Virus record (IMG/VR): IMGVR_UViG_3300045988_163275
Location: 43,752 to 107,751 of that record
Origin: a virus
Lineage: Duplodnaviria; Heunggongvirae; Uroviricota; Caudoviricetes
DNA: 64,000 bases
Strand: one strand, 5' to 3'
The notes under the pieces were generated by a model, which worked only from the letters and a program-made list of their open reading frames with translations, was not told where the DNA came from and ran no database searches. Positions 17,875 to 43,760 of the stretch are shown piece after piece. The stretch's first letter is position 1. Every line of letters begins with the position of its first letter. Both the position numbers and the translations under genes were made by a program.

Positions 17875-18930
17875 ATGAGCGTAAACGACAATAAAAACAT
17901 TGCGATAAGCGAAGCATTTTCCGAAACAGACAAAAAGACCGGCGAAGTTGTTACGTTAGTTCCTAACACCAACAACACAGTTCAGCCTGTTGCTCTGATG
18001 CGTCTTGGTCTCTTCGTTCCGACGCTGAAATCGACATCCAGGGGTAGAAAGGGGCAAATGGTCTCTATGGACGCCTCCGCTGAACTCAAACAGCTGTCTC
18101 TGGCCAAAGCCGAAGGGTACGAGGATATAAGGATTGCTGGTCTTCGTCTTGATATGGATAACGATTTCAAAACATGGGTGGGCATCATCCACGCGTTCGC
18201 CAAGCACAAGGTTGTTGGTGACACCGTCACGTTGCCGTTCGTCGAGTTCGTCAGACTTTGTGGCATACCAACAGCCAGATCGTCCGCGAAGTTACGTAAG
18301 CGCCTGGACAGCTCTCTAAGTCGTATCGCCACAAACACCATCTCATTCCGCAGCAAAGGCTCTGAAGAGTATTACGTTACGCACCTTGTGCAGACGGCAA
18401 AGTACAGTACCAAGAATGACACGGTCGAACTGAAGGCCGATCCTAAGATTTTCGAACTTTACCAGTTCGACAAAAAGGTGCTTTTGCAACTTCGGGCCAT
18501 CAACGAACTCTCCAGAAAGGAATCCGCGCAGGCGCTCTACACCTTCATTGAAAGTTTGCCACCAGACCCGGCGCCAATCTCATTGGCTCGCTTACGCGCC
18601 AGACTTAACTTAACCAGCCGCACCATTACCCAGAATGCGACAGTCAGGAAGGCGATGGAGCAACTGCGAGAGATCGGCTATCTCGATTACACTGAAGTGA
18701 AACGCGGCAGCTCGGTCTACTTCGTCATCCACTATAGACGGCCGAAGTTACGTTCGGCACTGCCGCCATCTATGGCCACGCCTGAAGATCCAGAAGATAT
18801 CTTGCCAGGTGATGATCCGGAGGACATTATCGATGTTGCTCCTGAAGAAAAAGACGGGGAAATGGTCATGTTGAGCAAGGAAGAACTGGCGATTCTCGAA
18901 GAGCTGCGCAAGGCAAAGGCTCGCAAATAG
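17875..18930 (+). CDS. repA: replication initiator RepA (P1/RepFIB-like)
   Basis: Blocks [60 protein letters not shown] match my recollection of P1 RepA; flanked on both sides by iterons. Confidence 0.8.
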
Positions 18931-21023: not shown

Positions 21024-24000
21024 TTGATGAAAATAATCGATAACCTTAACAACCTATTAGGTGACGAGCTTCAACAGACGCTGACACCGAATACAAAGTT
21101 AAAGATTGCTGCGTCTTGCTTTTCTATTTATGCGTATGAGGCTCTCAAAAAGGAGTTAGCGAAGATAGACTCACTTGAGTTCATCTTCACATCACCTACT
21201 TTTGTCGCAGATGAAGTTACCGATAAATTCAAAAAAGAAAAACGAGAGTTCTTTATTCCCAAAGCAGGGCGTGAACGCAGCCTTTACGGAACTGACTTTG
21301 AAATACAGTTAAAGAACAAGCTCACTCAAAAGGCGATCGCCAAAGAGTGTGCAAACTGGATCAGAAAGAAAGCGACATTCAAATCAAACAAAACTGATTC
21401 TCCAATGCAGTCGTTTGTTGTGACGGAAGCACCTAGACAGCAAACAGAGACAATGAGTGCAGTTTTTGCTCCGGTTAGCGGGTTTACGGCGGTTGATCTA
21501 GGGTATCAGCGAGGAAATGCTATTTCGAATTTTGTGCAAAAAATCGATGAGCCAAATTTCACAGCCCAGTACTTACAGTTATTCGACCAAATTTGGAAAG
21601 ACCCTGCGAAGCTTCAAGATGTTACTAAAACAATTTGCGAGCATATAGAGTCTGTCTACCAGGAAAACTCGCCTGAGAAAGTCTATTTCATTATTTTGTA
21701 TAACATTTTTAATGAGTTCCTTGATGATATTACAGAGGATGTATTACCAAATGATCGAACCGGCTATCAGGACACCTTGATTTGGAACAAGTTATTCAAC
21801 TACCAAAAAGATGCCGCGACTGGGATTATCAATAAGTTAGAGACCTATAACGGCTGCATTCTGGCTGATAGTGTTGGTCTTGGTAAAACATTTACAGCGT
21901 TAGCTGTCATCAAGTATTACGAGCTCAGGAACAAGTCCGTACTTCTACTGTGTCCGAAAAAATTGGCAGATAACTGGCTCAACTTTAATCGAAACTTAAA
22001 GACAAATATTTTTGCTAAAGACCGTTTTAGTTACGATGTTTTGTGTCACACAGATTTGAGTCGAACCTCTGGCGAATCCTTCGGTACTCCGTTGAATAGA
22101 ATAAACTGGGGTAACTATGACTTGGTCGTCATTGATGAGTCGCATAACTTTAGAAATAACGATGCAGTGAAAGATCGAGAAACTCGATATCAGAAACTGA
22201 TGAATAAAGTGATTCGCGCTGGCGTAAAAACCAAGGTGCTGATGCTATCAGCGACACCAGTGAATAACAGATTTACTGACCTGAGAAACCAGCTCGCGTT
22301 AGCTTATGAAGGCGAGTCGAGCAATCTCACAAAGCATCTTAAAACCACAAAAAGCGTAGAACAGATCTTCAACCAAGCACAAGCCGCATTTAACGCTTGG
22401 TCCAAACTCGACCCAGAGACGCGAACAGCTAAAGCCATACTCGATGCCTTAGATTTTGACTTTTTTGAACTGCTTGATAGCGTCACTATCGCTCGCTCAC
22501 GAAAGCACATCACAACTTTCTACGACACAACAGATATTGGCCATTTCCCTGAACGTAACAAGCCAATCTCGTTTCATTGTCCGCTTACTACTCGTTCGGA
22601 TGTAGTAAGCCTGAATGAGATCTTTGAACAGCTTAAGCTACTCAAACTATCTGTTTATGCGCCAGTGAGTTATATCCTCCCGAGTAGATTGAAGAAATAT
22701 GAGGAGATGTATGACACGGAAGTTGAAGGCGGAAAAGGTAAGTTAAAGCAAAGCGACCGTGAAAAAAGTTTGGTTGCATTGATGACAACGAACCTCCTAA
22801 AGCGTCTTGAGAGCTCCGTATACTCGTTCAGAAGCACCTTGCAATCTCTCCATGATAACCATGTTCGTGTTCTAGGTATTATCGACGAATTCTATAAGCG
22901 AGACGGGCAAACCGAAGTGAGCAGTCTCGTTGAAGCGCTAGAGTCTATTGAAGCAGATGAAGACGATATGCCTTCTTATCACGATATGGAAATCGGTAAC
23001 AAAATCAAAATTAAGCTAATGGATATGGATCTTCCATCCTGGCAGCAGGATTTAGATGGCGATTTGGAGCTGATCAAAGGGTTACTAGATTCTGTTAGCA
23101 AAATTAAGCCAGAAGAAGATGCTAAGTTGCAGCATCTGAAATCACATATTGCTGCAAAAATAAATAATCCGATAAATCCTGGAAACCGGAAAATCATCGT
23201 GTTCACGGCGTTTGCTGACACCGCTCAGTATCTGTACGAGCAGTTGTCACCTGTGATGTTAAGCGAGCATAGAATCCATACTGCGATGATCACTGGTGGT
23301 GCCAGTTTACCTAAGACCACCTTAAAAACCGGACGAAAAGGTTACGACACACAAGAAGTGCTCACCTTGTTTTCTCCAGTTTCCAAATCGAAAGCCAGTG
23401 TATTACCTGACGAACCCGCTGAAATCGATTTGTTGATTGCTACAGACTGTATCTCTGAAGGGCAGAACTTACAGGATTGCGATTACTTAATTAACTTTGA
23501 TATTCATTGGAATCCAGTTCGGATTGTTCAGCGCTTTGGGCGTGTTGACCGTATTGGCTCGGCGAATAAATGTATTCAGTTAGTTAACTACTGGCCTGAT
23601 ATATCGCTGGATGAGTACATCAACTTAAAAGAACGTGTTGAAAGTCGAATGACGATTGTTGACGTAACAGCGACCGGTGATGACAACGTTCTAAGTTGTC
23701 AAGCGAATGATGTGTCGTACCGTAAAGAGCAGTTAAAGAAACTACAAGAAGAAGTCATCGAGCTTGAAGATTTAAAAACGGGGGTTTCTATCACCGATCT
23801 AGGTCTAAACGAATTTCGAATGGACCTGCTAAATCTAATGAAACTCTACGGCGAACCAAGAAATGCACCAAGCGGCATGCATGCGGTGGTTGAGGCTAAG
23901 CCAGAATTAGGGTTATTGCCTGGCGTGGTGTTTGCGCTGAAAAACGTTAATAACAGTATCGATAGAGATCTGCAAAACAGGCTCCACCCTTATTACCTTG

Positions 24001-24359
24001 TCTATGTATCGAATGAAGGGGACATCGTCGCTAATCATTTTGAGGTAAAGAGACTATTAGATTTAATCCGAAGTAGCTGTAAAGGTCAAACAGCACCGCT
24101 CAGTGAGATTTGTGCTTTATTTAATCGCTTAACGCAAGACGGTCGAGATATGCAGTGTTACTCTCACCTTCTAACAGATGCCATAAAAAGCATGGTTGAA
24201 GTTAAGGAAGAAAAAGATATTGATAGTTTGTTCAATGGTGGCGCTACCTCAGCTTTAGTGAATACATTTGCCGGGCTTGATGACTTTGAATTGCTGGCAT
24301 TTATTGTGATCCAGCAAAAGCAGCTGATGGAAAACAGTGCCCAGGATGAGGTTAGCTAA
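21024..24359 (+). CDS. SNF2-family helicase (1111 aa) with about 280-aa N-terminal domain of unknown function
   Basis: Motif I ADSVGLGKTF, motif II VVIDESHNFRN, motif III LMLSATPVNN, motif V/VI region DCDYLINFDIHWNPVRIVQRFGRVDRIGS. Confidence 0.85.
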   Translation: MMKIIDNLNNLLGDELQQTLTPNTKLKIAASCFSIYAYEALKKELAKIDSLEFIFTSPTFVADEVTDKFKKEKREFFIPKAGRERSLYGTDFEIQLKNKLTQKAIAKECANWIRKKATFKSNKTDSPMQSFVVTEAPRQQTETMSAVFAPVSGFTAVDLGYQRGNAISNFVQKIDEPNFTAQYLQLFDQIWKDPAKLQDVTKTICEHIESVYQENSPEKVYFIILYNIFNEFLDDITEDVLPNDRTGYQDTLIWNKLFNYQKDAATGIINKLETYNGCILADSVGLGKTFTALAVIKYYELRNKSVLLLCPKKLADNWLNFNRNLKTNIFAKDRFSYDVLCHTDLSRTSGESFGTPLNRINWGNYDLVVIDESHNFRNNDAVKDRETRYQKLMNKVIRAGVKTKVLMLSATPVNNRFTDLRNQLALAYEGESSNLTKHLKTTKSVEQIFNQAQAAFNAWSKLDPETRTAKAILDALDFDFFELLDSVTIARSRKHITTFYDTTDIGHFPERNKPISFHCPLTTRSDVVSLNEIFEQLKLLKLSVYAPVSYILPSRLKKYEEMYDTEVEGGKGKLKQSDREKSLVALMTTNLLKRLESSVYSFRSTLQSLHDNHVRVLGIIDEFYKRDGQTEVSSLVEALESIEADEDDMPSYHDMEIGNKIKIKLMDMDLPSWQQDLDGDLELIKGLLDSVSKIKPEEDAKLQHLKSHIAAKINNPINPGNRKIIVFTAFADTAQYLYEQLSPVMLSEHRIHTAMITGGASLPKTTLKTGRKGYDTQEVLTLFSPVSKSKASVLPDEPAEIDLLIATDCISEGQNLQDCDYLINFDIHWNPVRIVQRFGRVDRIGSANKCIQLVNYWPDISLDEYINLKERVESRMTIVDVTATGDDNVLSCQANDVSYRKEQLKKLQEEVIELEDLKTGVSITDLGLNEFRMDLLNLMKLYGEPRNAPSGMHAVVEAKPELGLLPGVVFALKNVNNSIDRDLQNRLHPYYLVYVSNEGDIVANHFEVKRLLDLIRSSCKGQTAPLSEICALFNRLTQDGRDMQCYSHLLTDAIKSMVEVKEEKDIDSLFNGGATSALVNTFAGLDDFELLAFIVIQQKQLMENSAQDEVS

Positions 24360-24362
24360 TCT

Positions 24363-25049
24363 ATGTACTCACCTTGGATATTTCCTGACAAAGCAAAGTT
24401 CGGTCGAGTCGTGCCGAAGAACAAAATATACGAACACAGCGCGGCAAGCGCTGGATTGAAGTCACTTTTTGTAGAGCAAGTAGAGCAAATCCTTTGGGCT
24501 TACAAGCTATCGCCTAGCACGCTGAATATTCCTCAAACCAGTGAGGTCAGTGAAATACAGGTTTTCAGTGTGAAGCTTAAAGGTGACTCGATAGACGACA
24601 GCGTACTAAAAGCCATTGATTTGGCGATACCTTTTCCCATTCTATTTGAGGTATGGGAAGCTCGCGGTGAGCAAGGCCACTACGTTGCTTGCTATAAGCG
24701 TAAGGCAGAAAATGATCAGTCAAAATGGTTTTGTAGCCGCTATTTACGCTCAGAAACCTTCTATTCAAGTGATTCATTAGCAGTGACTTCAGAAGTTTTG
24801 GGGTTGCCTACCGCCATCGATATGGCGGAGCTGTATCAAAAGCTTCTTACTCGCTTGTTACCCATACCCCAACGAGCCGCTGAGAGTATTGAAGAGGTCA
24901 TTGAACGCTTGATGGCAATTCAGGCATTGGAAAAGCAAATCTCGCAATATAAGAAGAAGGTTCATGCCGAGAAACAGTTTAACCGCAAGGTTGAGCTCAA
25001 TAAGCAGTTAAAGAATTTAAGGTGCGAGCTTCAAGAGTTACTCGCATAA
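24363..25049 (+). CDS. hypothetical protein, translationally coupled to the SNF2 helicase gene
   Basis: 228-aa ORF starting 4 bp after helicase stop; C-terminal coiled-coil-like region; no motif I can name. Confidence 0.55.
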   Translation: MYSPWIFPDKAKFGRVVPKNKIYEHSAASAGLKSLFVEQVEQILWAYKLSPSTLNIPQTSEVSEIQVFSVKLKGDSIDDSVLKAIDLAIPFPILFEVWEARGEQGHYVACYKRKAENDQSKWFCSRYLRSETFYSSDSLAVTSEVLGLPTAIDMAELYQKLLTRLLPIPQRAAESIEEVIERLMAIQALEKQISQYKKKVHAEKQFNRKVELNKQLKNLRCELQELLA

Positions 25050-25122
25050 AGAATAAACAATTTCAATCAGTTAAATAGTGCCACATGCTTTTTATGCAAG
25101 GCATCACGCAAAAGGTGAACAC

Positions 25123-27045
25123 ATGGACAAATTAAAGATGCACAGCCCCGACATGACGCAGCAAAACATAGAGAAAATTCAGGCGTTGTTTCCGAACTGC
25201 GTGACGGAATCAAGAGGAGCTAACGGAGAGCTAAAGTTAGTCATTGATTTTGACCAACTTAAACAAGAGCTATCAAATTCAATCGTTGAAGGCCCGCAAG
25301 AGCGCTATCAGCTGAACTGGCCCGGTAAGCGAGAAGCACTACTAACAGCGAACGCACCTATTGCAAAAACATTAAGACCTTGTCGAGAAGAAAGTGTTAA
25401 TTTTGATACCACAGAAAACCTCTTTATTGAAGGTGATAACCTTGATGCGCTAAAAATGTTGCAAGAAACCTATTTGGGCAAGGTTAAGGTGATTTATATA
25501 GATCCGCCCTATAATACGGGTAAGGATTTTATATACGAAGACGATTTTGCTGAAAATTCTGATGGGTTTTTGAAGCGGTCAAATCAAAAGGATGAAGAAG
25601 GCAATCGCCTTGTAGCCAATACCGATTCCAACGGTCGCTTTCACTCAGACTGGTTGAGCATGATATTTTCGAGACTTAAACTTGCACGCAATATACTAAG
25701 TAGTGATGGAATTATCTTTATTAGTATAGATGAAAACGAGCTTGATAACCTCTTGAAAATAGGAAAGGAAATATTTGGTGAAGAGAACCACATAACTACG
25801 TTTTGTTGGGAAAAAAAGAAGAAACCATCTTTTCTTAATAAAAATGTAGGTTCGAAATTCGAGTATATTGTCACCTTTTCAAAGAATCGTGATTACACAG
25901 GTGCATTTTCCATTGATCTTACAACTGAAGGTAAAAAGTACCCCCTGAATAATGCAGGGAACTCACTCGGAAACCTTGTTTTTCCAGCAGGTTCGGTACG
26001 ATTCAACTTGCCAGACCAGATTATAGAACCGCAAGATATGTCTGAGGGTAAAATAAAAACCAGGTTAATTAATAGGTTGGAAATAATTGGAGGTAAAAAC
26101 GTTAATGAATTTATCCTTGAGGGTGAATGGAGATATTCTCAGAATAGATTAAATGAAATTCTAGAAAATCGAGAAGAAATTATAATCAGCAAAGTTCCGT
26201 TTAGGCCAAATCATGTAAAAGCAGGAGGTGAGATAAAAAAAATGCACAACCTCCTAAGTGTCGCTCATTATAAAGTTTCAACTAATGAGGATGCGGATGC
26301 CGAAAGTTCAGAGTTGATGGGGAATAAATACTTTGATTACACCAAGCCTTCAAATTTAATCAAACTATTAATCCAAGCAATAACTTATGACGATCAAGAA
26401 TGTCTAGTATTAGATTTTTTTGCGGGTTCATCAACAACCGCCCATGCCGTGATGCAACTTAATGCAGAAGATGGCGGAAATCGAAAATTTATCATGGTTC
26501 AGTTGCCTGAAGAGTGTGATAAAAAATCAGAAGCCTTCAAAGCTGGCTACAAAACAATTGCTGAGATATCAAAAGAACGCATCCGCCGTGCTGGTGCAAA
26601 AATATTAGAAGGGGAGTGCCACAAAGACTGGAATAAAGACGTTGGTTTCCGAGTGCTTAAAGTTGATACATCCAATATGGCCGATGTCTACTACTCGCCA
26701 GAGCAGGTTTCTCAGGGTTCGTTAGACTTATTGGTAGATAATATTAAATCAGACCGCACTGATGAAGATTTACTTTTCCAGGTTCTACTTGATTGGGGCG
26801 TCGATTTAACCTTGCCAATTAGAAAAGAAACGATTCAAGGTAAATCGGTATTCTTTGTCGATGATGATGCACTGGTGGCCTGTTTTGATCTGCGCATAAA
26901 TGAAGCTTTGATTAAAGAGTTAGCCATAAAAGAACCTCTTCGCGTAGTGTTCCGTGATGACGGCTTTGAATCTGATGCAGTAAAAATCAATGCTGAGCAG
27001 ATTTTCAAGCAAGTGTCGCCATATACTGAAGTTAAAGCGATTTAA
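25123..27045 (+). CDS. N6-adenine DNA methyltransferase, beta-class (Type III Mod-like)
   Basis: Catalytic motif [12 protein letters not shown] near N-terminus and AdoMet motif [14 protein letters not shown] near C-terminus (IV before I order); start at ATG 25123 with AAAGGTGA RBS. Confidence 0.85.
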
Positions 27046-27140
27046 GGGGGGAGCATGACAAATTTTACCGGATTAAAATTTGCACACAGCCTTGTCGCAG
27101 ACAAGGTGTGCCCAAAGGGTTGCGTACAGGGAGGTGCGCA

Positions 27141-30100
27141 ATGAAACTTAAATTCAAAGTCCAGCCTTATCAAACTGTTGCCGTAGAGTCGGTTGTTGAC
27201 TGCTTTGCGGGGCAACCTAATACCTCCGGTATAACCTACCGAATCGATCCTGGCATTGCCAAAGATAAATTTGGCAATGCTGGCTGGGATATGAGTGACC
27301 AGGATGGGTTTAAAAATGCTGAACTTGCGATCACTGAATCGCAGTTATTGCAAAATATCCATGGTGTTCAAAGTAGACAGAACCTCCCTGTTTCAGAAGC
27401 GTTAGCCAGCAATGCTAGCTCTAAGATTAATCTCGATGTTGAAATGGAAACCGGTACAGGTAAGACATATTGCTACATCAAAACTATCTTTGAGATGAAT
27501 AAACGCTATGGCTGGAGCAAATTTATTATCGTAGTGCCTAGCATTGCCATTCGTGAAGGTGTTTACAAGTCGCTACAAATCACAGGTGAGCATTTTGCCC
27601 AGAATTACAACGGTAAAAAGGCACGGTTTTTCATCTATAACTCAAAACAATTGCACCAGTTAGAGAGTTTTTCTTCTGACAGTGGCATCAATGTCATGAT
27701 CATTAATATTCAAGCCTTTAATGCATCAGGAAAAGACAATCGACGTATTTATGAAGAGTTGGATGACTTCCAGTCTAGGCGTCCTATTGATGTTATTAGT
27801 GCAAACCGTCCAATCCTGATTTTGGATGAGCCGCAGAAGATGGAAGGTAAGAAGACATTAGATGCCTTAGCCAAATTCAAACCACTGATGGTACTTCGAT
27901 ATTCGGCCACGCATAAGACAACACATAATAAGGTGCATCGTCTGGATGCTCTTGACGCTTATAACAATAAGCTGGTTAAGAAAATTGCAGTTCGTGGTAT
28001 CTCAGTAAAGGGTTTAGCGGGCACTACAGCCTATCTATATCTGGAATCCATCGAAATCTCAAAAAAAATGCCAGTGGCTCGTATAGAGATCGAGGTTAAA
28101 CAACAAAATGGCATCAAACGCATACCCAAGAAGGTCACTAAGGGCGATAATCTTTTTGATCTTAGTAATGGTTTGGACCAGTACCGTGATTTTGTGGTTA
28201 CTGATGTCAACGCGATTAACGACACAGTTGAATTCAAAAATGGCCATGTTTTAACCGCGGGCGATGCCACGGGAGACGTGACCGAAGAGACCATTCGCCG
28301 CATACAGATTCGCGAGACAATTAAAGCACACCTTGAAAAAGAAAAAATACTTTTTAACCAGGGTATAAAGGTTCTCTCTCTCTTTTTTATTGACGAAGTC
28401 GCAAAGTATAGGGACTACTCTCAAGCCGATGAAAAAGGTGATTATGCTCGCGTTTTTGAAGAAGAGTATTCCTTGCTTGTACAGGAGTATCTTGATGAGT
28501 TGTCCCTTTTGCCAAGTGAGCAGACTGATGCCTATAAAGCCTATCTATCGGCCATTGAAGGCTCTAGAACGCATAATGGTTACTTCTCAATTGATAAGAA
28601 ATCAAATCGTCTTCAGAACCCCGGCTTTAAAGTCCGTGGTGAAGATGCCGGGCTATCAGACGATGTAGATGCCTATGATTTGATTTTAAAAGATAAGGAA
28701 AAGTTACTTTCGTTTGAAGAGCCTACTCGATTTATCTTTTCACACTCGGCCTTGCGCGAGGGGTGGGATAATCCAAACGTATTTGTCATGTGTATGTTGA
28801 AACACAGCGACAATACTATCTCTCGTCGTCAAGAAGTTGGACGTGGTTTACGTCTGGCCGTCAATAAACATGGTGACAGACAAGATCATCCGGCAACTGT
28901 GCATGAAATTAATGTCTTGTCGGTGATTGCAAGTGAAAGCTATAAAGACTTTGTCACGAATCTGCAAAAAGAGATCAGCGAGTCTCTCTCAGCGAGACCT
29001 AGAAAAGCAGATGAAGCTTATTTTACGGGTAAGACAATTACAACAGCTGATGGACCTGTAGAAGTAACACCTGTCATGGCTAAGCAAATTTATAAGTATT
29101 TGCTTAAAAATGATTATACCAATGACGTTGACGATTCAATTGCGCCATCATTCCACCAGGCTAAGGCTAGTGGGCAGTTAGCGCCAATGCCTGCTGAGTT
29201 AGAGCCTTACCGCGAGCAAATATTGACCCTGATTGACGGTGTTTATAGTGAAGCGCAATTGCCAGGTGTTGGTGATGATCGTAAACCTAAAAACAATCCG
29301 TTGAATGCTAATTTTGATAAGAAAGAGTTTCAGGAGCTTTGGCACAAAATCAATCGCAAAGCGGTTTATAAGGTTGATTTTGATTCGTCTGAGTTGATTA
29401 AAAATTGTATTCGGGTACTCAATAAAGAGCTTAAGGTAACGCCTCTTCAGTACACGATTCAAGATGGTGTTCAATTGGATGGCATTACCGACGAACAACT
29501 CAAAGCTGGACAAAGTTTCAAGGTGAAAAACACTGAGACTGAAACTCATCAATCGAGCATTCATTCTGCTGTTCGTTATGACTTGGTTGGTAAGTTGGCT
29601 GAAAATTGTGTGCTGACTCGCAAAACAGTCGCCGAAATACTGATGGGTATAGAACCTGTAGTATTTGCACAATTTAAGCAGAACCCTGAGCATTTTCTCG
29701 CTGAGGCTTCACGCCTTGTGAAAGAGCAAAAGGCATCTGTGATCATCGAGAAGCTATCATATGATCCAACGAACGAATCTTATGATGTTGATATATTCAC
29801 GGCAGAGCAAAAAATCACTGATATGACAAAAGCCGTTAGTGGCGTTAATAAGCATATTTATGATTATGTTGTCGTTGATTCACAAGGCATTGAACGGGAC
29901 TTTGTTACCGAGCTTGATACAAGCAAAGAAGTCGTGGTTTATGCAAAACTGCCTCGTGGTTTTCTGATACCGACGCCTGTTGGCGACTACAACCCTGATT
30001 GGGCGATTTCTTTCAAAGAAGGAAGTGTTAAACACATTTACTTTATTGCAGAGACTAAAGGAACGATGTCTTCGCTTGAATTGCGTGGCATAGAAGATCG

Positions 30101-30218
30101 CAAGATTGAATGTGCTAGGAAATTCTTTGAAAAAATTAATGCAGAGATAACGAGTGAAAACGTCAAATATGATGTTGTAACGAGTTACTCGAAATTAATG
30201 GAAGTCATAAGCGGTTAG
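27141..30218 (+). CDS. Type III restriction Res-like helicase-nuclease
   Basis: Helicase motif [10 protein letters not shown], motif [11 protein letters not shown], motif [12 protein letters not shown]; C-terminal PD-ExK-like GDYNPDW...IAETKG; start at ATG 27141 with GGGAGGTG RBS. Confidence 0.85.
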
Positions 30219-30519: not shown

Positions 30520-32859
30520 TTAATCTTCTAATTCATCTGTCGGTGATGTCTTCTCGCGCCTGTCATCTATTGCCTGTAACGCAGCAATGATTTCAGCTAA
30601 TGGCTTCTCCCGGTACATCTCGACGATCTGTGATTTGGTGTATTTCTTCTCGCCAATTTCCACACGCCCGCTGGCGCTCTTGGGCAGGTATCCTTCCTCC
30701 AGCATGTATTCAACCAGAGACTCGACGACGTCCAGCCCGCGAGTCGGGTCGAAGTAGAATTTCCATGAGCATTTGCCAAACGGAGGCGCGACTTTGTTTT
30801 TAATGCACTCGGCGCCAACGTCCTGTCCGATCTTCTCTTTGCCATCCTTCATGACGGATGCACCCAGACGGATGCGCACCGACGCGTAGAACTTCGGAGA
30901 GTCGCCACCCGGAGACGTAGTCGGATCGCCAAACATCACACCAATTTTGGTACGCACCTGGTTCAAGAAGATGATGCACGCGTTGTACTTACGCGCCCAA
31001 AGCGCCAGAGTAGGGAAGTTCGCACTTGTCGCGCGCGCCAGCGCCGTGTTGTCGTTCATGTTCAGCTGATCTTTGTCCTTCGCAGTGCCTTCTGCCATCT
31101 TGTCGAACTTCTCAGCCTTCGAGTTCGGAACCATCGACGCCAGAGAGTCGGCTACGATGCAGATAGGGGCTGTTTCCGGAATAAGCTCTTCGTCGCGCAC
31201 CAGCTTGAGGATTGTGCCGATCAGCTCTACGGAGTCTTCGAAGGTATCCGGCTGTTTGTAGACCCACTGACCGTCGTCTTCGTCGGCGTTCAGTCCGTTC
31301 GCTACCGCCAGACCAACGTCGAAACTGTTTTCGTGGTCAAGGAATACGGCCAGACCATCCTGTTTTTGTGCTGACACCATCGCAGCTGTCGCGAGGAATG
31401 TGTTGTGGCTGATAATCCCGTTAGACCAGAAAGAGTGTGTTTCCGGCATCGCTACGTCGAACGTTGGTGCTTCACCTTCCTCAATAGCCACGACTTCGTC
31501 GTAGAACAAGTTAGAGTCAATTACCGCTGCCAGTTGTGCAAACAGATGCTCGTTAAAACGATTCTTTCTGCTAATGAAGGAGACATAGATTTCTCGCAGT
31601 TTGTCTATTCCGACACGATCGCCGCGGCCAATAACGTGATCTACCAGAACGTAGTCTTTACGAGAGGTCTTGGTGAGTGACTCGTAGAGTGATTTCACTA
31701 AGCCGCTGATGTGCGGAACGTAGCCTAAATAAGTGCGGTCAAAACTAATGTCCCGTTTGGTTGCCACTGCTAAACGAGCCGGAGACTCGAACCCAATCGT
31801 TGACAGGAAAAGGTCGTAGTTAGAGCCACTGAATGACAGCCGGTAATATATGTTTTTATAACCTGCGACGTGTTTTTCAGAGATAGTTGACGTAATCCCC
31901 AGATTCAGGAGCATGAGGCGAATTTGCTGTAGCAGCAGCCCACTCGCGCTCACAACCTCAATGCAGCGACCATCATTGATGTGGCATTCCAGCTCAAAGT
32001 AGCCGCGAAGGAATGCAATTTGAGCCTCGCTATTGGCGCGACGCACACTCAACGGAACCTGCTTGCCAGCAGCTTTCTCATACTCCAGACCATATTCTTT
32101 AAAAAGCAGCGAACGCACCTCTTTGCTAAACAGCACATGGTCTTCCGAGCCGTTATGTTTTCTCGTAACTGGCATCTTGTCTGATACCAGCGAAATGAGG
32201 CGGTAGTACTCATCCTTGATGAATGGATCTGTGTTAGAAAAATGCACAGAATTTTCAGAGGCCACGTATCCGTCAGCAATTAAATAGCCCATCAGTTTTG
32301 CGATATTGGCATCCAAGTGCTGATCGCCGAATTGATGTGTGCCAACCATTGAAGGAATCGTGTCGCCTACACTGATTTTTTCAGCATACCGCCAGACGAT
32401 ATTGCCTAAGTCGTCAACCACACGAATTGGGTGACGGAACGTAGCCTCGATGTAACCCCCTGATGCCAGCTTAATGCGCTTGAATTTGCGACGGTTGTTC
32501 CATGTCAGGTGTGAGGTCTTCTCTATCACGCCATTTTCATTGATGAGTCCAACGTTATGCTCTACATCGCGAGTAGTGCATGTTGCTTTGTGCCCCTCAA
32601 TCTCAAACAGTTCTTTCACTGTTACCATTCCACGCTCCGTCAGCAGCATGGTGTCTGCGGTAACACATTTCCCCGCGCTTGGTGGCCCGAAGACTTCAAC
32701 GATACGCCCACACGGAAAACCACCGTCGTAACGTCCGGAAATGGCTTTGTTCAGTGGAGGGAAACCGGAGTCAATCCAGTGGGAGACCTTCTGAATCTCG
32801 TCATTGCTGCCGATTTTCTTTTTCAGCGCCAGTGCCAGTGCGGATTTGCCTTTTGCCAT
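30520..32859 (-). CDS. RecA/UvsX-like recombinase interrupted by an intein
   Basis: N-extein ends GRIVEVFGPPSAGK; C-extein resumes TFLATAAM... and contains IIFLNQVR; 422-aa insert begins with Cys and ends HN. Confidence 0.8.
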   Translation of the reverse strand: MAKGKSALALALKKKIGSNDEIQKVSHWIDSGFPPLNKAISGRYDGGFPCGRIVEVFGPPSAGKCVTADTMLLTERGMVTVKELFEIEGHKATCTTRDVEHNVGLINENGVIEKTSHLTWNNRRKFKRIKLASGGYIEATFRHPIRVVDDLGNIVWRYAEKISVGDTIPSMVGTHQFGDQHLDANIAKLMGYLIADGYVASENSVHFSNTDPFIKDEYYRLISLVSDKMPVTRKHNGSEDHVLFSKEVRSLLFKEYGLEYEKAAGKQVPLSVRRANSEAQIAFLRGYFELECHINDGRCIEVVSASGLLLQQIRLMLLNLGITSTISEKHVAGYKNIYYRLSFSGSNYDLFLSTIGFESPARLAVATKRDISFDRTYLGYVPHISGLVKSLYESLTKTSRKDYVLVDHVIGRGDRVGIDKLREIYVSFISRKNRFNEHLFAQLAAVIDSNLFYDEVVAIEEGEAPTFDVAMPETHSFWSNGIISHNTFLATAAMVSAQKQDGLAVFLDHENSFDVGLAVANGLNADEDDGQWVYKQPDTFEDSVELIGTILKLVRDEELIPETAPICIVADSLASMVPNSKAEKFDKMAEGTAKDKDQLNMNDNTALARATSANFPTLALWARKYNACIIFLNQVRTKIGVMFGDPTTSPGGDSPKFYASVRIRLGASVMKDGKEKIGQDVGAECIKNKVAPPFGKCSWKFYFDPTRGLDVVESLVEYMLEEGYLPKSASGRVEIGEKKYTKSQIVEMYREKPLAEIIAALQAIDDRREKTSPTDELED
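31402..32667 (-). mobile_element. intein with LAGLIDADG homing endonuclease domain inside the Walker A motif
   Basis: Insert CVTADTML...GIISHN followed by Thr +1; two LAGLIDADG-like blocks LMGYLIADGYV and IAFLRGYFELECH; excision gives GPPSAGKT. Confidence 0.7.
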
Positions 32860-32861
32860 GA

Positions 32862-33134
32862 TTAGGCTCCTTTTGATTCGTTGATTCGCTTCGAAGCAGC
32901 GGCTTCGTCAAACTTGATTGCGTCGTGGTTCAGGTGTTTGGCGACGCGAGCGATGATCTTCACGACCTGCTCACTGACCAGCGCGAACTCACGCTCAGTA
33001 GCAGAAATGCCAGCAGCGCCCAGAATGTTCGGCAGCGCTACCACAGCGTGCTCGCCGTGGCAGAAAACAATCTCCTTTGCCAGCATGGTTGGCGTAGTTG
33101 CCCCGCCATTAATGATGGATTTCAGCATCAGCAA
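32862..33134 (-). CDS. hypothetical small protein
   Basis: 90-aa ORF between flap endonuclease and recA-like gene. Confidence 0.35.
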   Translation of the reverse strand: MLMLKSIINGGATTPTMLAKEIVFCHGEHAVVALPNILGAAGISATEREFALVSEQVVKIIARVAKHLNHDAIKFDEAAASKRINESKGA

Positions 33135-40085: not shown

Positions 40086-41321
40086 TTAACCAAAGATCTT
40101 CTGAACCACTTCACGCGCTGCCTGTGCAGACGTGGATGGAAGTTTATTGATAAACGACTTTTCGATGCCGGCAGAGAAATCACCGCGCATCATTCCGATT
40201 TTGGCGGACAGCAGCAGCTCACGAGGCCCGATTGGCTGGCTAATCTGATGCTTTTCATAACCTTCACGGATAAGATTCGCGAACTTCACCATCTTCTCGG
40301 CGTATTCGCGGATGACGCCTGCTTCAGCCAGCATGTTGACTTCTGCCTTCGTACTCATGTACTTCACGTTTGAAACAATGCCAAAACGCGAGAAGTTCGC
40401 TGCGTTCTGGATGTTTGTGCCTTGATAGAGACCTGTTTCGTCGCCAGAGCCGTTAGTGTTGCCAGTGCCAATGAAGGCAAAGCGTTTATGCGGGGTGATG
40501 CGGCGCCAGTCCGCAGTTGCCTCTTTGATGATCAGCGGCTCTCCTTCAAGAACTGGCTGATACACACCCAGAATCTGCGGGAACGCGAAGTCATATTCAT
40601 CAGCGAGGTAAACCCAACCATTTTTCATCGCCAGCGCTAGTAAACCCGGTTCGAAATAGGTGGAACCATCGCGAGCGAGGATCTGGCCTGTAACGTGCGC
40701 TTCCTCCATAGACGCCGTATGCTGGGCGCGGATCAGTGGTCGATTTAGCAGGGCACATAGCTGCGTAGGAAGAGAAGATTTACCGGTTCCTGCATGGCCC
40801 CAGAGATAACCCGGGATTCCGATTTCCAGCATCATAAAGATGTCTTTGATCAGGTCGAAGTCGCCATACACATAGTTTTTCTTCGCTTCCGGTACGAACT
40901 CCGGATAGGGCGTGTTGACGTTGACTGTCACCTGTAGTGGCTTTCCGCGTGGCGTTCCCAGCTCTTTGATCGTTACGCCAAGCAGCTCGTGCGCGGCCAC
41001 CAGTTCGGTCTTGTATTCGACCGTTCCTGCGTAGCCCGGATGTGCGCTAATCTCCGCTACTTTTCCTTCGCCTGAATGCTTTTCGGCACGCTTCTCATTG
41101 AGTTTGGCCAGTGCCGTGCGAGAGATCGTTGGTTCATCTGGAAACGCAGAGGTGTACATCTTCACCACTTCGTCCACGTCCAGACCCTTCGCAGACTCAG
41201 GAATATTCTCGCAACGGCCCATAGAGATATGGGATTTCAGGTAATGAAAGGATTTGCCACACCACTTGCAGACGATGGCTTCCGGCAAATGTTCTTCTTG
41301 CTGTAGTGCAGTAGCGGTCAT
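40086..41321 (-). CDS. AAA+ ATPase, MoxR/CobS-like
   Basis: Walker A LWGHAGTGKSSL, Walker B VYLADEYD. Confidence 0.7.
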   Translation of the reverse strand: MTATALQQEEHLPEAIVCKWCGKSFHYLKSHISMGRCENIPESAKGLDVDEVVKMYTSAFPDEPTISRTALAKLNEKRAEKHSGEGKVAEISAHPGYAGTVEYKTELVAAHELLGVTIKELGTPRGKPLQVTVNVNTPYPEFVPEAKKNYVYGDFDLIKDIFMMLEIGIPGYLWGHAGTGKSSLPTQLCALLNRPLIRAQHTASMEEAHVTGQILARDGSTYFEPGLLALAMKNGWVYLADEYDFAFPQILGVYQPVLEGEPLIIKEATADWRRITPHKRFAFIGTGNTNGSGDETGLYQGTNIQNAANFSRFGIVSNVKYMSTKAEVNMLAEAGVIREYAEKMVKFANLIREGYEKHQISQPIGPRELLLSAKIGMMRGDFSAGIEKSFINKLPSTSAQAAREVVQKIFG

Positions 41322-41416
41322 GTTTTTTCCTTACTGTTTGTCGTTTGTGGGGTATATCTTATAGAAATATATTAGGCTGTATAGTAAGTAGTTACTTATT
41401 TTTAAGGGTAAAGCTA

Positions 41417-43648
41417 TTACCAAAGAATGATACGAGATAACTCAGTGACGACTGACGGCCCTAACTCTTCAACACTGTTAACCAGTGCGTAATTTTTGTA
41501 GTAACGCCGTGGTTCGTCGGTCAGAATGCCGATAGCCATCAGTTCGATGTCGCTCAAGGTCTCAATTTCTTTGGTGACGGTTCGTAAATGCTGATGGAAT
41601 CCACTACCTGTAGCACATGGCTCCCCATCACTCATAACCAGCATGATCTTTTTGTCCTCCATTCGCCCTGCAAACAGGGTAGCCAGTTGCGCGACACTCT
41701 CACCATCGACGTTATTGAGCAGGGGGAACGTCTCACATACGCATCCCATGCGAGCACGGATCTCTGGAGAGTTTGCTTTCTCATTCCAGTTTTTGATAAT
41801 GGGCAGCATGAGCGCCTCGAAGCGTGTAAACCCGCGCTTCGACCTGGTTTCATAATCTGGGCTACCGAACGTGGTAAAGCCGGTGATGATGTTGGGGACA
41901 TTGATACGATCTAAAGCATCCGCAATGGTATAGGCACTGGCTAGGGCCAGTTGAATCTTCACGCCATCCATTGAGCCGGACAAGTCGATGACCTGCTGGA
42001 CACACGCATTCACCGCTCTATGGTCTTCCTTCTTGCGGAACACTCGGTCGTCGTTCATTGCCAGACGATACAGGCTCGCGCCATGTATCCGCCCACGCCT
42101 CTGACCAGGTATAAACTGAACTCGGTTGCGGCTGGCGATGGCCCGCTCCAGGTCTTTGGCCAGCGTCGAAGAAACGCCTGCAGACAGATGTTTTTCGATT
42201 TTCAGTTCAAAGAGTTTTCTGCCTTCTGGCACCATACGGTAGCGGTCGACTGGTGAGTGCATTGGTATTGCACCGAACGTCTTTCTGGTGCGCTTCACAT
42301 GCTCTTCGGCTCCATCAATCAACCCGATAAAGTCGTATGATCGATCGTATGGCCGATAATCAGAAGGTGAGACGCTCATAAGCTCTTTGCTGATGGTGGC
42401 CGACAGTGCGTCTTCGGTCATTTCACCGATTCCGTCTTCCATCTCGTCGAGCGCCTTTAGCGCCTCCTCCAGAGTCATTTCATCCGGCGCAGGAACAAAG
42501 CCAGACTCACTGTCTTTGGGCACTTCCGCACCATCTTTATTTTTTTTGCCTTCGACGTCTTCTTCTTCAGTTTCCCCACGATCAGTATCGGAGTCCTCAC
42601 CGCCATCACCATCGGTGTCAGAGTCACTTGATTTCATGCCGATAGCATCGGATTCTGGGGTGTCTCCTGACTCTTCGTGGCCTGCTTCTGTATATTTACT
42701 TTCTGTATCACTAATATCTTTAACGTGTGTAGGTAAGTCCTTATCTAACGAATCAGGCAAATCGGAATCCCCAGAATCTTCCTCTTCTGATGCATCATCT
42801 TCTCGTTCTTCCTTGTCATCGCCTTCGCCTTTGGCAGGCTTAGATGCAGAGTCACCATGAGATGGCTCGTCACCTGATTCTGGCGTTTCCTCGGACTCGT
42901 CTTTGCTCTCCGACGGATTTCTGGCAGATGATTTAAGTTCTGGTAATTTGCCCTCTGGCTTGTCTTTCATATCCTGCATGATTTGGGCTATAGCAGCAGC
43001 GACCTTCACGCAATCCTCAGTGTTCGACATATTGCGAACGGCCACGTCTATACCATGCTCCTTTAGTAAGGCTACCGGCCTCTCGATAAGGCGCCAGTGT
43101 TCTTCCATAAAATCGATGAAGGGGCTTTGTCCATCCCAGGCGCGGACGACCGGGCAAAGGAAGAATTTCAAAAACAATTCACGCTGGTCTCCGTGACAGG
43201 CTAAAACCGCTTCTGGTACTTTATTCCTGAAGTATTTGTCGATAACCAGACTCTGTGTTGCAAGTAAATTACGCCGGGTTCCGTTAAAGACCTGCCCCAT
43301 TCTGCGTTCAATAAAAACGTCTTCCAGCGCATTCCAAAGCCCCGTAGACGGAGCCTTTCCTCTTTCGCGCATCTGCATTGCGACTTTCGGTTCAGTAAAG
43401 AGAATATGGGCCACCTCATGGTCGAGAAAACCACGCACTGCGTTCATGAGGGTTGGCGACGCGTCGTCCGGTATAGATGGGATGTTTACCAGCACTGGTT
43501 CGCCGCGCCGGTTATAGCGGACATATGCTTCATTGCCTCGTTCTGCAACAGGTATCTGTTTACCTGAAAGCATCGCTACAACTCGTTTTACACAGTCGCG
43601 AAAATCCTGCACCTCTTTCAGTACAGCTTTGGTGGTTTTTTTGGACAT
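41417..43648 (-). CDS. von Willebrand factor A domain protein (CobT-like partner of the AAA+ ATPase), with long acidic central region
   Basis: C-terminal MIDAS motif VIDLSGSMDG; acidic Asp/Glu/Ser-rich linker; start placed at MSKKTTKAV ATG 43646-43648 with AAGGGA RBS. Confidence 0.65.
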   Translation of the reverse strand: MSKKTTKAVLKEVQDFRDCVKRVVAMLSGKQIPVAERGNEAYVRYNRRGEPVLVNIPSIPDDASPTLMNAVRGFLDHEVAHILFTEPKVAMQMRERGKAPSTGLWNALEDVFIERRMGQVFNGTRRNLLATQSLVIDKYFRNKVPEAVLACHGDQRELFLKFFLCPVVRAWDGQSPFIDFMEEHWRLIERPVALLKEHGIDVAVRNMSNTEDCVKVAAAIAQIMQDMKDKPEGKLPELKSSARNPSESKDESEETPESGDEPSHGDSASKPAKGEGDDKEEREDDASEEEDSGDSDLPDSLDKDLPTHVKDISDTESKYTEAGHEESGDTPESDAIGMKSSDSDTDGDGGEDSDTDRGETEEEDVEGKKNKDGAEVPKDSESGFVPAPDEMTLEEALKALDEMEDGIGEMTEDALSATISKELMSVSPSDYRPYDRSYDFIGLIDGAEEHVKRTRKTFGAIPMHSPVDRYRMVPEGRKLFELKIEKHLSAGVSSTLAKDLERAIASRNRVQFIPGQRRGRIHGASLYRLAMNDDRVFRKKEDHRAVNACVQQVIDLSGSMDGVKIQLALASAYTIADALDRINVPNIITGFTTFGSPDYETRSKRGFTRFEALMLPIIKNWNEKANSPEIRARMGCVCETFPLLNNVDGESVAQLATLFAGRMEDKKIMLVMSDGEPCATGSGFHQHLRTVTKEIETLSDIELMAIGILTDEPRRYYKNYALVNSVEELGPSVVTELSRIILW

Positions 43649-43655
43649 TAGAATT

Positions 43656-43673
43656 CCCTTGTTGTTAAAACAA
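43656..43673. promoter_or_regulatory. class-2 palindromic motif upstream of VWA/CobT-like gene
   Basis: ttaaaacaatttgttttct immediately 5' of RBS. Confidence 0.45.
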
Positions 43674-43760
43674 TTTGTTTTCTGATGTGCGTAATTTATC
43701 ACTGTACGAACAGGCATCTAATCTGTTCGTACAGGCGCTAGAGAGGATGGGAGGGGGGTG

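Follow-up and report, generated by a model that had tools for sequence, protein, structure and literature searches.

A probable LAGLIDADG intein in the P-loop of an SSU5-type phage-plasmid recombinase, with a population signature of homing

The DNA analyzed here, referred to as the window, is a stretch of 64,000 nucleotides (nt), corresponding to positions 43,752 to 107,751 of the IMG/VR virus record IMGVR_UViG_3300045988_163275. The gene under study lies on its minus strand and encodes a RecA/UvsX-like recombinase, interrupted by what is very probably an intein. The open reading frame (ORF) is 779 amino acids (aa) long, and its ATG is preceded by an AAAGGAG ribosome-binding site. The insert spans 1266 nt: its first residue is a Cys, its C-terminal end reads ...NGIISHN, and the sequence that follows, TFLATAAM, starts with Thr487. 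A first-pass annotation, made from the letters alone, had described this 779-aa ORF, with a 422-aa insert at 31402-32667, starting with Cys, ending in His-Asn and followed by Thr +1: both coordinates and residues are exact when checked against the translation. The features of the gene are the following; blocks are named according to intein nomenclature.

30520..32859, minus strand: precursor gene, intein-containing RecA/UvsX-like recombinase, 779 aa plus stop codon (from the ORF list).
32668..32859, minus strand: N-extein, precursor aa 1-64, whose C-terminal end is the Walker A part GPPSAGK (32668..32688; from the translation).
31402..32667, minus strand: probable intein, 422 aa, precursor aa 65-486, with a HINT splicing domain and a nested LAGLIDADG homing endonuclease (from hidden Markov models, an AlphaFold2 (AF2) model, Foldseek and empty alleles).
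30520..31401, minus strand: C-extein, aa 487-779 plus stop codon, whose first residue, Thr487 (31399..31401), is the predicted +1 nucleophile and also the Walker A Thr.
32665..32667, minus strand: block A nucleophile, Cys1 of the intein (precursor C65).
32431..32442, minus strand: block B TxxH, here TFRH, precursor aa 140-143 (intein residues 76-79).
32266..32295, minus strand: first LAGLIDADG motif, LMGYLIADGY, precursor aa 189-198, acidic residue D196.
31981..32013, minus strand: second LAGLIDADG motif, FLRGYFELECH, precursor aa 283-293, acidic residue E291.
31429..31467, minus strand: block F, PTFDVAMPETHSF, precursor aa 465-477.
31402..31422, minus strand: block G, NGIISHN, with penultimate His and terminal Asn, precursor aa 480-486.

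GPPSAGK occupies residues 58-64 of the precursor. Removal of the 422-aa insert generates a 357-aa protein featuring GPPSAGKT, which is matched by the Pfam RecA model as one stretch (147 bits); the precursor is matched by the same model as two stretches, and the LAGLIDADG_3 and Intein_splicing matches fall between them. The spliced protein is colinear with E. coli RecA over the Walker A motif (aligned segment of the spliced protein: GRIVEVFGPPSAGKTFLATA), and the insertion is therefore located between the Walker A Lys (K64) and Thr (T487). Two earlier proposals, namely that the insertion falls within the P-loop and that precise excision restores both a canonical Walker A motif and a complete recombinase, are confirmed, by the alignment with E. 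coli RecA and by the single Pfam stretch respectively. The GC content of the insert is 47.8%, versus 53.6-54.0% in the flanking extein coding parts.

Alleles without the insert occur naturally. In SSU5, in Y. pestis pMT1 and in many Enterobacter, Klebsiella and E. coli plasmids, the recombinase is 357-358 aa long and reads GPPSAGK/TFLATAAM, where the slash marks the junction; the N-extein of the window is 97-99% identical, at the nucleotide level, to the SSU5 and pMT1 ones. The junction DNA of SSU5 and pMT1 is ...GGGCCGCCAAGCGCCGGTAAA/ACCTTTTTGGCAACGGCT..., and the flank variant found next to the intein is GCGGGGAAA/ACATTCCT. The first-pass annotation had itself named a native domain as the alternative, that is, an accessory part of this recombinase family and not a mobile insertion. 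Nothing but the uninterrupted reading frame speaks for this explanation; close alleles, 95-99% identical in the flanks, lack the insert precisely, the insert fits models and structures of inteins and homing endonucleases, and it splits the Walker A motif. The existence of natural insert-free alleles, with the exact junction, therefore excludes a native domain, to which only a negligible probability may be assigned.

The composition of the insert was evaluated by Pfam and NCBIfam models, intein and LAGLIDADG calls being judged by the curated cut-offs. PF14890 (Intein_splicing) scores 44.8 bits (cut-off 35.8; E=1.5e-11) and covers both ends of the insert; PF14528 (LAGLIDADG_3) scores 64.5 bits (cut-off 22.5; E=1e-17). 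The models for the N-terminal and C-terminal intein regions, TIGR01445 and TIGR01443, score 35.8 bits (cut-off 24.5) and 17.8 bits (cut-off 15.6). These matches are far beyond chance.

Blocks A, B, F and G, the absence of whose conserved residues would have spoken against an intein, are all found. The five intein-bearing alleles compared, which come from four genera, show no difference at C1, T76xxH79, either of the block F residues (Asp, His), H421-N422 or T+1. Distant homologs (28-44% identity) retain C1, both block B residues (Thr, His), the Asp of block F, the His-Asn pair and T+1. In particular, Cys1 is unchanged in all those covering the site, the block B Thr and His are kept in every homolog aligned over that block, and the terminal His-Asn pair of block G is invariant. 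The pattern PTFDV..P.THSF of block F is conserved among homologs; its His is the only residue of the set to vary among the distant ones, being replaced by Gln in two of them. The LAGLIDADG-like blocks LIADGY and LRGYFELECH, anticipated by the first reading of the sequence, are also present, within the two motifs listed above. The first motif aligns with GYLIADG of the TliVMA and PI-PkoII inteins; in the second, E291 is aligned to the second-motif Asp (..CDG..) of the solved V-ATPase intein endonuclease.

The AF2 model of the insert, obtained with 13 sequences, has a predicted local distance difference test score (pLDDT) of 85.7 and a predicted template modelling score (pTM) of 0.87. When compared to the PDB by Foldseek, its best matches are endonuclease-bearing inteins: TliVMA (7qss) ranks first (E=5e-21, template modelling score (TM) 0.71), and PI-PfuI (1dq3), PI-PkoII (2cw7) and yeast PI-SceI (1vde) are also matched, the four spanning E values from 5e-21 to 1e-8 and TM from 0.45 to 0.71. 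The same four are the best sequence matches among solved structures, and in them, as in the insert, the HINT domain is interrupted by a two-motif LAGLIDADG core; they differ in sequence (10-21% identity) and in their hosts, which are V-ATPase, ribonucleotide reductase and DNA polymerase. Mini-inteins (4oz6, 1am2, 4e2t) and I-DmoI are found at lower ranks, fitting the two domains separately. Curated models, block residues and predicted fold all support the LAGLIDADG intein originally proposed: with high confidence, the insert may be described as a class-1 HINT intein, containing a nested double-motif LAGLIDADG endonuclease and located between Walker A K64 and T487.

The RecA-like character of the exteins, also indicated by the first-pass annotation, is supported by the Pfam RecA match and by phrog_97, 'UvsX-like recombinase', which the spliced extein matches with 308 bits. 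On TIGR02012, the equivalog model of cellular RecA, the spliced extein scores 156.1 bits, below the cut-off of 325.3. The precursor matches phrog_9666 over its full length, a family labeled in PHROGs as 'unknown function'. By these scores, by its gene neighborhood and by its plasmid-only occurrence in complete E. coli genomes, the host gene is classified as a phage-plasmid UvsX/RecA-like recombinase, not as a cellular recA. It belongs to a conserved phage module of replication and recombination, in which RepA, the recombinase, a small ORF, a 5'-3' exonuclease and a gp32-like single-stranded DNA-binding protein follow each other, and then DnaE. This gene order is shared with SSU5, to which the exteins are 96% identical. 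The whole gene is 99.9% identical to genes of IncFIB, non-mobilizable E. coli plasmids of ~105-115 kb, and 92-93% identical to those of phages Cyrano, PhiR41_1 and vB_KpnS_p4727. Synteny and identity thus assign the replicon to the SSU5-type phage-plasmids, in agreement with the phage-plasmid nature initially suggested for it.

The intein itself had already been reported. RecA and RadA inteins were mined by Topilina et al. 2015 (NAR 43:6631, PMC4513877), whose Table 1 includes a RecA intein "c2 (65-486)", hosted by eight E. coli strains, Enterobacter cloacae BWH 29, Enterobacter sp. MGH 26 and Salmonella enterica 557928, and located in the P-loop, where its insertion point coincides with that of the archaeal RadA intein (c1). 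Coordinates, length (422 aa), site and hosts all match, and the intein in the window is therefore identified, on this correspondence, with c2, the "E. coli RecA intein". In that paper the host protein is treated as a bacterial RecA and phages are never mentioned, whereas the host in the window is a phage-plasmid recombinase; in every use returned by a text search of the article, 'plasmid' refers to laboratory constructs; polymorphism and homing signatures are not analyzed (PMC4513877). A literature search retrieved no paper on this intein in a phage-plasmid context (SSU5, pHCM2, pMT1, Cyrano, UvsX). As a discovery, the intein thus carries little weight, since both the literature and RefSeq product names already include it and its anatomy is that of a textbook intein and homing endonuclease. 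What is added here is that the host gene is a phage-plasmid recombinase, that the intein is present in roughly one in three SSU5-like plasmids, and that its population features a signature of recent homing.

In PLSDB, the intein is found in 248 of the 768 records containing the recombinase gene (~32%). The distribution among genera, as records with the intein out of records with the recombinase, is the following.

Escherichia: 123 of 206.
Klebsiella: 71 of 313.
Enterobacter: 41 of 91.
Citrobacter: 6 of 25.
Yersinia: 0 of 63.
Salmonella: 1 of 49.

Among complete E. coli genomes, 120 out of 5426 contain the intein: all of the 121 copies are located on plasmids and none on a chromosome. In a scan of species-representative genomes, a 109-kb Kluyvera contig proved to contain an identical copy.

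Ten alleles were compared, exteins and intein both in codon register. The exteins fall into three lineages, SSU5/pMT-like (including the window), Klebsiella-like and Cyrano-like, with 80-86% nucleotide identity between lineages. Within each lineage, both intein-bearing and intein-less alleles occur, and their exteins are 95-99% identical. The inteins, in turn, are 96.8-99.8% identical across the three lineages; E. coli-type and Klebsiella-type genes contain inteins 99.8% identical, despite exteins only 83-85% identical. Between the window and Cyrano, the synonymous divergence (dS) of the exteins is 1.03, with a nonsynonymous to synonymous ratio (dN/dS) of 0.015; the corresponding values are 0.079 and 0.18 for the whole intein, 0.088 and 0.22 for its endonuclease part. 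The dS of 0.079, compared to 1.03, indicates that the intein is more than ten times younger than its host genes; the dN/dS values of 0.18 and 0.22 indicate that both splicing and endonuclease parts are under purifying selection.

In the SSU5/pMT-like lineage, synonymous markers at positions -7, -4, +3, +6, +7, +9 and +15 from the junction distinguish intein-bearing from intein-less alleles. In the Klebsiella lineage only the -7, -4, +3 subset tracks the presence of the intein, and in the Cyrano lineage only the downstream markers do. Lineage-specific markers return at ~10-20 nt from the junction. This pattern is the one that would be expected from very short co-conversion tracts; near-identical inteins within diverged exteins, together with linked flank markers, constitute, as far as sequences tell, a homing signature. 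Intein-less alleles carrying intein-type flanks, which would be the footprints of precise loss, were searched for in PLSDB and none was found, the best match being 92.2% over the 90-nt spliced junction; a search of IMG/VR likewise revealed no intein-less allele with intein-type flank markers.

A mechanism may be proposed on the basis of the established chemistry of class-1 inteins and of LAGLIDADG homing. The 779-aa precursor would be unable to bind ATP, because its P-loop is split. Splicing would proceed through an N-S acyl shift at Cys1, the attack of Thr+1 on the resulting thioester and the cyclisation of Asn422, releasing the 357-aa recombinase, with an intact GPPSAGKT, and the free 422-aa intein. 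The latter would act as a site-specific endonuclease on the uninterrupted GPPSAGK/TFLAT coding sequence of an intein-less phage-plasmid, either co-resident or co-infecting. Repair of the double-strand break from the intein-bearing copy would then convert the empty allele (homing), carrying along a few flanking bases.

A further reading is more tentative, and we would place it somewhat short of an even chance: the "E. coli RecA intein" would be a parasite of a phage-plasmid recombinase, and its homing would now be under way in clinical and livestock Enterobacteriaceae, across three or more diverged SSU5-like lineages, with unusually short co-conversion tracts (~3-20 nt); the host recombinase may catalyse the homing repair, and the intein, since it splits the Walker A loop, could control phage-plasmid recombination as a post-translational switch. 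The idea of a switch parallels the archaeal RadA intein found at the same site, where such switching was shown.

A number of observations weigh against the favored explanation, that of a class-1 intein spreading by homing. The second LAGLIDADG motif is atypical, featuring ELEC in place of D/E-x-D-G (Cys for the final Gly), so that endonuclease activity is uncertain. The literature search returned no splicing or DNA-cleavage experiment on this intein. Recombination among phage-plasmids is frequent, and part of the spread could be due to ordinary recombination. Finally, Yersinia and Salmonella plasmids are nearly intein-free though their targets are near-identical; possible reasons are that the elements seldom meet, that target variants are resistant, or that the endonuclease is only weakly active.

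Some of these points also bear on a different explanation, according to which the intein splices but its endonuclease is inactive, its presence in three lineages resulting from ordinary homologous recombination between co-resident phage-plasmids and from vertical inheritance. The non-canonical FELEC of the second motif and the absence of the intein from whole host groups would fit, as would the visibly degraded endonuclease regions of relatives inserted at the same site (P0026, P0030, P0033 and P0034, described below), which indicates that endonuclease loss does occur in this intein family. Yet both catalytic acidic residues, D196 and E291, are kept, and the dN/dS of the endonuclease region is the low one reported above. 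Tracts ending at ~10-20 nt from the junction, in genes 80-86% identical, are hard to obtain via random crossovers, and the near identity of inteins in E. coli-type and Klebsiella-type genes also argues against this explanation, which we consider unlikely.

Some copies of the intein are broken, and the possibility that the insert is a decayed, non-splicing remnant, leaving a dead recombinase in intein-bearing plasmids, was evaluated in their light. A decayed copy does exist: E. albertii plasmid p3RM15116 (CP043239.1, 62 kb) contains an unannotated, 92% identical copy with 12 in-frame stops in the main frame; it seems to be decaying, on what looks like the shortened remnant of a phage-plasmid. 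In some plasmids, the intein is matched only partially (30-46% coverage); two such copies, in NZ_CP162200.1 and NZ_CP075717.1, correspond to truncated genes, where only the C-terminal part of the intein is left. In the former the break adjoins IS3/IS30 insertion sequence fragments, indicating truncation; in the latter the copy stops inside the intein, with an IS3 element ~2 kb off. The insert is, however, full length in the window and in ~240 PLSDB records, the window and the four other translated alleles all have an intact reading frame, and all splice residues are invariant. The extein dN/dS of 0.015, moreover, was obtained between two intein-bearing alleles, and the recombinase is therefore still under strong purifying selection. 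Intact frame, invariant splice residues and extein conservation lead us to reject a dead remnant, whose probability is very low. Partial copies were also considered as natural mini-inteins and rejected as such: neither that in CP162200 nor that in CP075717 is an internal deletion leaving a mini-intein.

More distant relatives are found in metagenomes and metagenome-assembled genomes (MAGs): a set designated P0019-P0034, and a locus from an Anaerolineae MAG. Their inteins are 28-44% identical to that of the window and occupy the same GK/C...HN/T site, in RecA-family genes. P0019 features an SSU5-like, phage-type N-extein; P0026, encoded on a 550-kb contig, interrupts a genuine cellular RecA, the spliced extein of which scores 544 bits on TIGR02012 (cut-off 325). 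The endonuclease region is degraded or lost in P0026, P0030, P0033 and P0034. The Anaerolineae locus (DAOTTO010000406.1, 1222..4209) encodes a 995-aa RecA with two inteins: one, 44% identical to the window intein, lies at the P-loop (GPESSGK/C...SHN/T), and the other is a mini-intein, located further on (IGVMFG/C...VVHN/SPETTSGG).

The RadA intein of Pyrococcus horikoshii (c1; PDB 4e2t) resembles the window intein in its position, a GK/T site at the end of the P-loop with Thr at +1 (EVFGEFGS(GK), TQLAH), and in its class-1 HINT fold (Foldseek ranks 22-27). In contrast, it is a mini-intein without endonuclease, has little sequence similarity, was acquired independently and resides in a hyperthermophilic archaeon; extein-regulated splicing has been shown for it by experiment. 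The RecA inteins of M. tuberculosis (PI-MtuI; point a, 252-691) and M. leprae (point b) share with the window intein a RecA-family host and, in the case of PI-MtuI, a LAGLIDADG endonuclease; they differ in their insertion sites, in their hosts, which are cellular RecA proteins, and in sequence, the similarity being remote (2imz at Foldseek rank 40). The NCBIfam model NF007072, 'intein-containing recombinase RecA', gives partial matches, the intein alone scoring E=1.5e-4.

The exact precursor protein falls into a 1496-member cluster, whose members originate from E. coli, Klebsiella and Enterobacter and go by the names RecA or LAGLIDADG endonuclease. RefSeq names for the gene vary: 'intein-containing recombinase RecA', 'LAGLIDADG family homing endonuclease', 'hint domain-containing protein', 'recombinase RecA' and 'hypothetical protein' are all in use. 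Because of this inconsistent naming, surveys of phage-plasmid gene content could miss the recombinase in intein-bearing elements: labels such as 'LAGLIDADG family homing endonuclease' in RefSeq, or 'unknown function' in PHROGs, hide a core recombination gene. Filled and empty alleles coexist side by side in hundreds of sequenced E. coli, Klebsiella and Enterobacter plasmids, about 32% being filled, and such mixed alleles provide a tractable mesophilic system for intein homing, and for possible conditional splicing, in a P-loop recombinase.

As for the neighborhood of the gene, no intein, Hint or LAGLIDADG domain was detected in ten neighboring products, including DnaE, helicases and a CobT-like protein. 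The small ORF of the conserved module, located between the 5'-3' exonuclease and the recombinase (32862..33134, minus strand), encodes 90 aa without Pfam match; in SSU5, in pMT1 and in every plasmid inspected, a 267-nt hypothetical-protein gene is annotated at this position. On the other side, a low-GC block (21024..30218, plus strand; ~0.35-0.44, versus ~0.54 in the recombinase) separates repA (17875..18930) from the recombinase and contains three genes.

21024..24359, plus strand: SNF2/ResIII-type helicase.
25078..27045, plus strand: N6/N4 DNA methylase.
27108..30218, plus strand: type III restriction endonuclease with a C-terminal RE_endonuc domain.

At the same position, sister plasmids contain a type I restriction-modification system (CP010244) or nothing (CP122497): because of this differing content, the spot resembles a variable hotspot of defence genes beside the recombinase. 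The two plasmids with truncated intein copies, NZ_CP162200.1 and NZ_CP075717.1, share with the window the neighboring type III endonuclease/helicase-type gene. Downstream of dnaE, at 40086..43717 on the minus strand, there is a CobS/CobT-like pair, consisting of an AAA_5 ATPase and a CobT-like VWA protein; in one sister plasmid, the CobT-like gene is annotated as 'porphyrin biosynthesis protein'.

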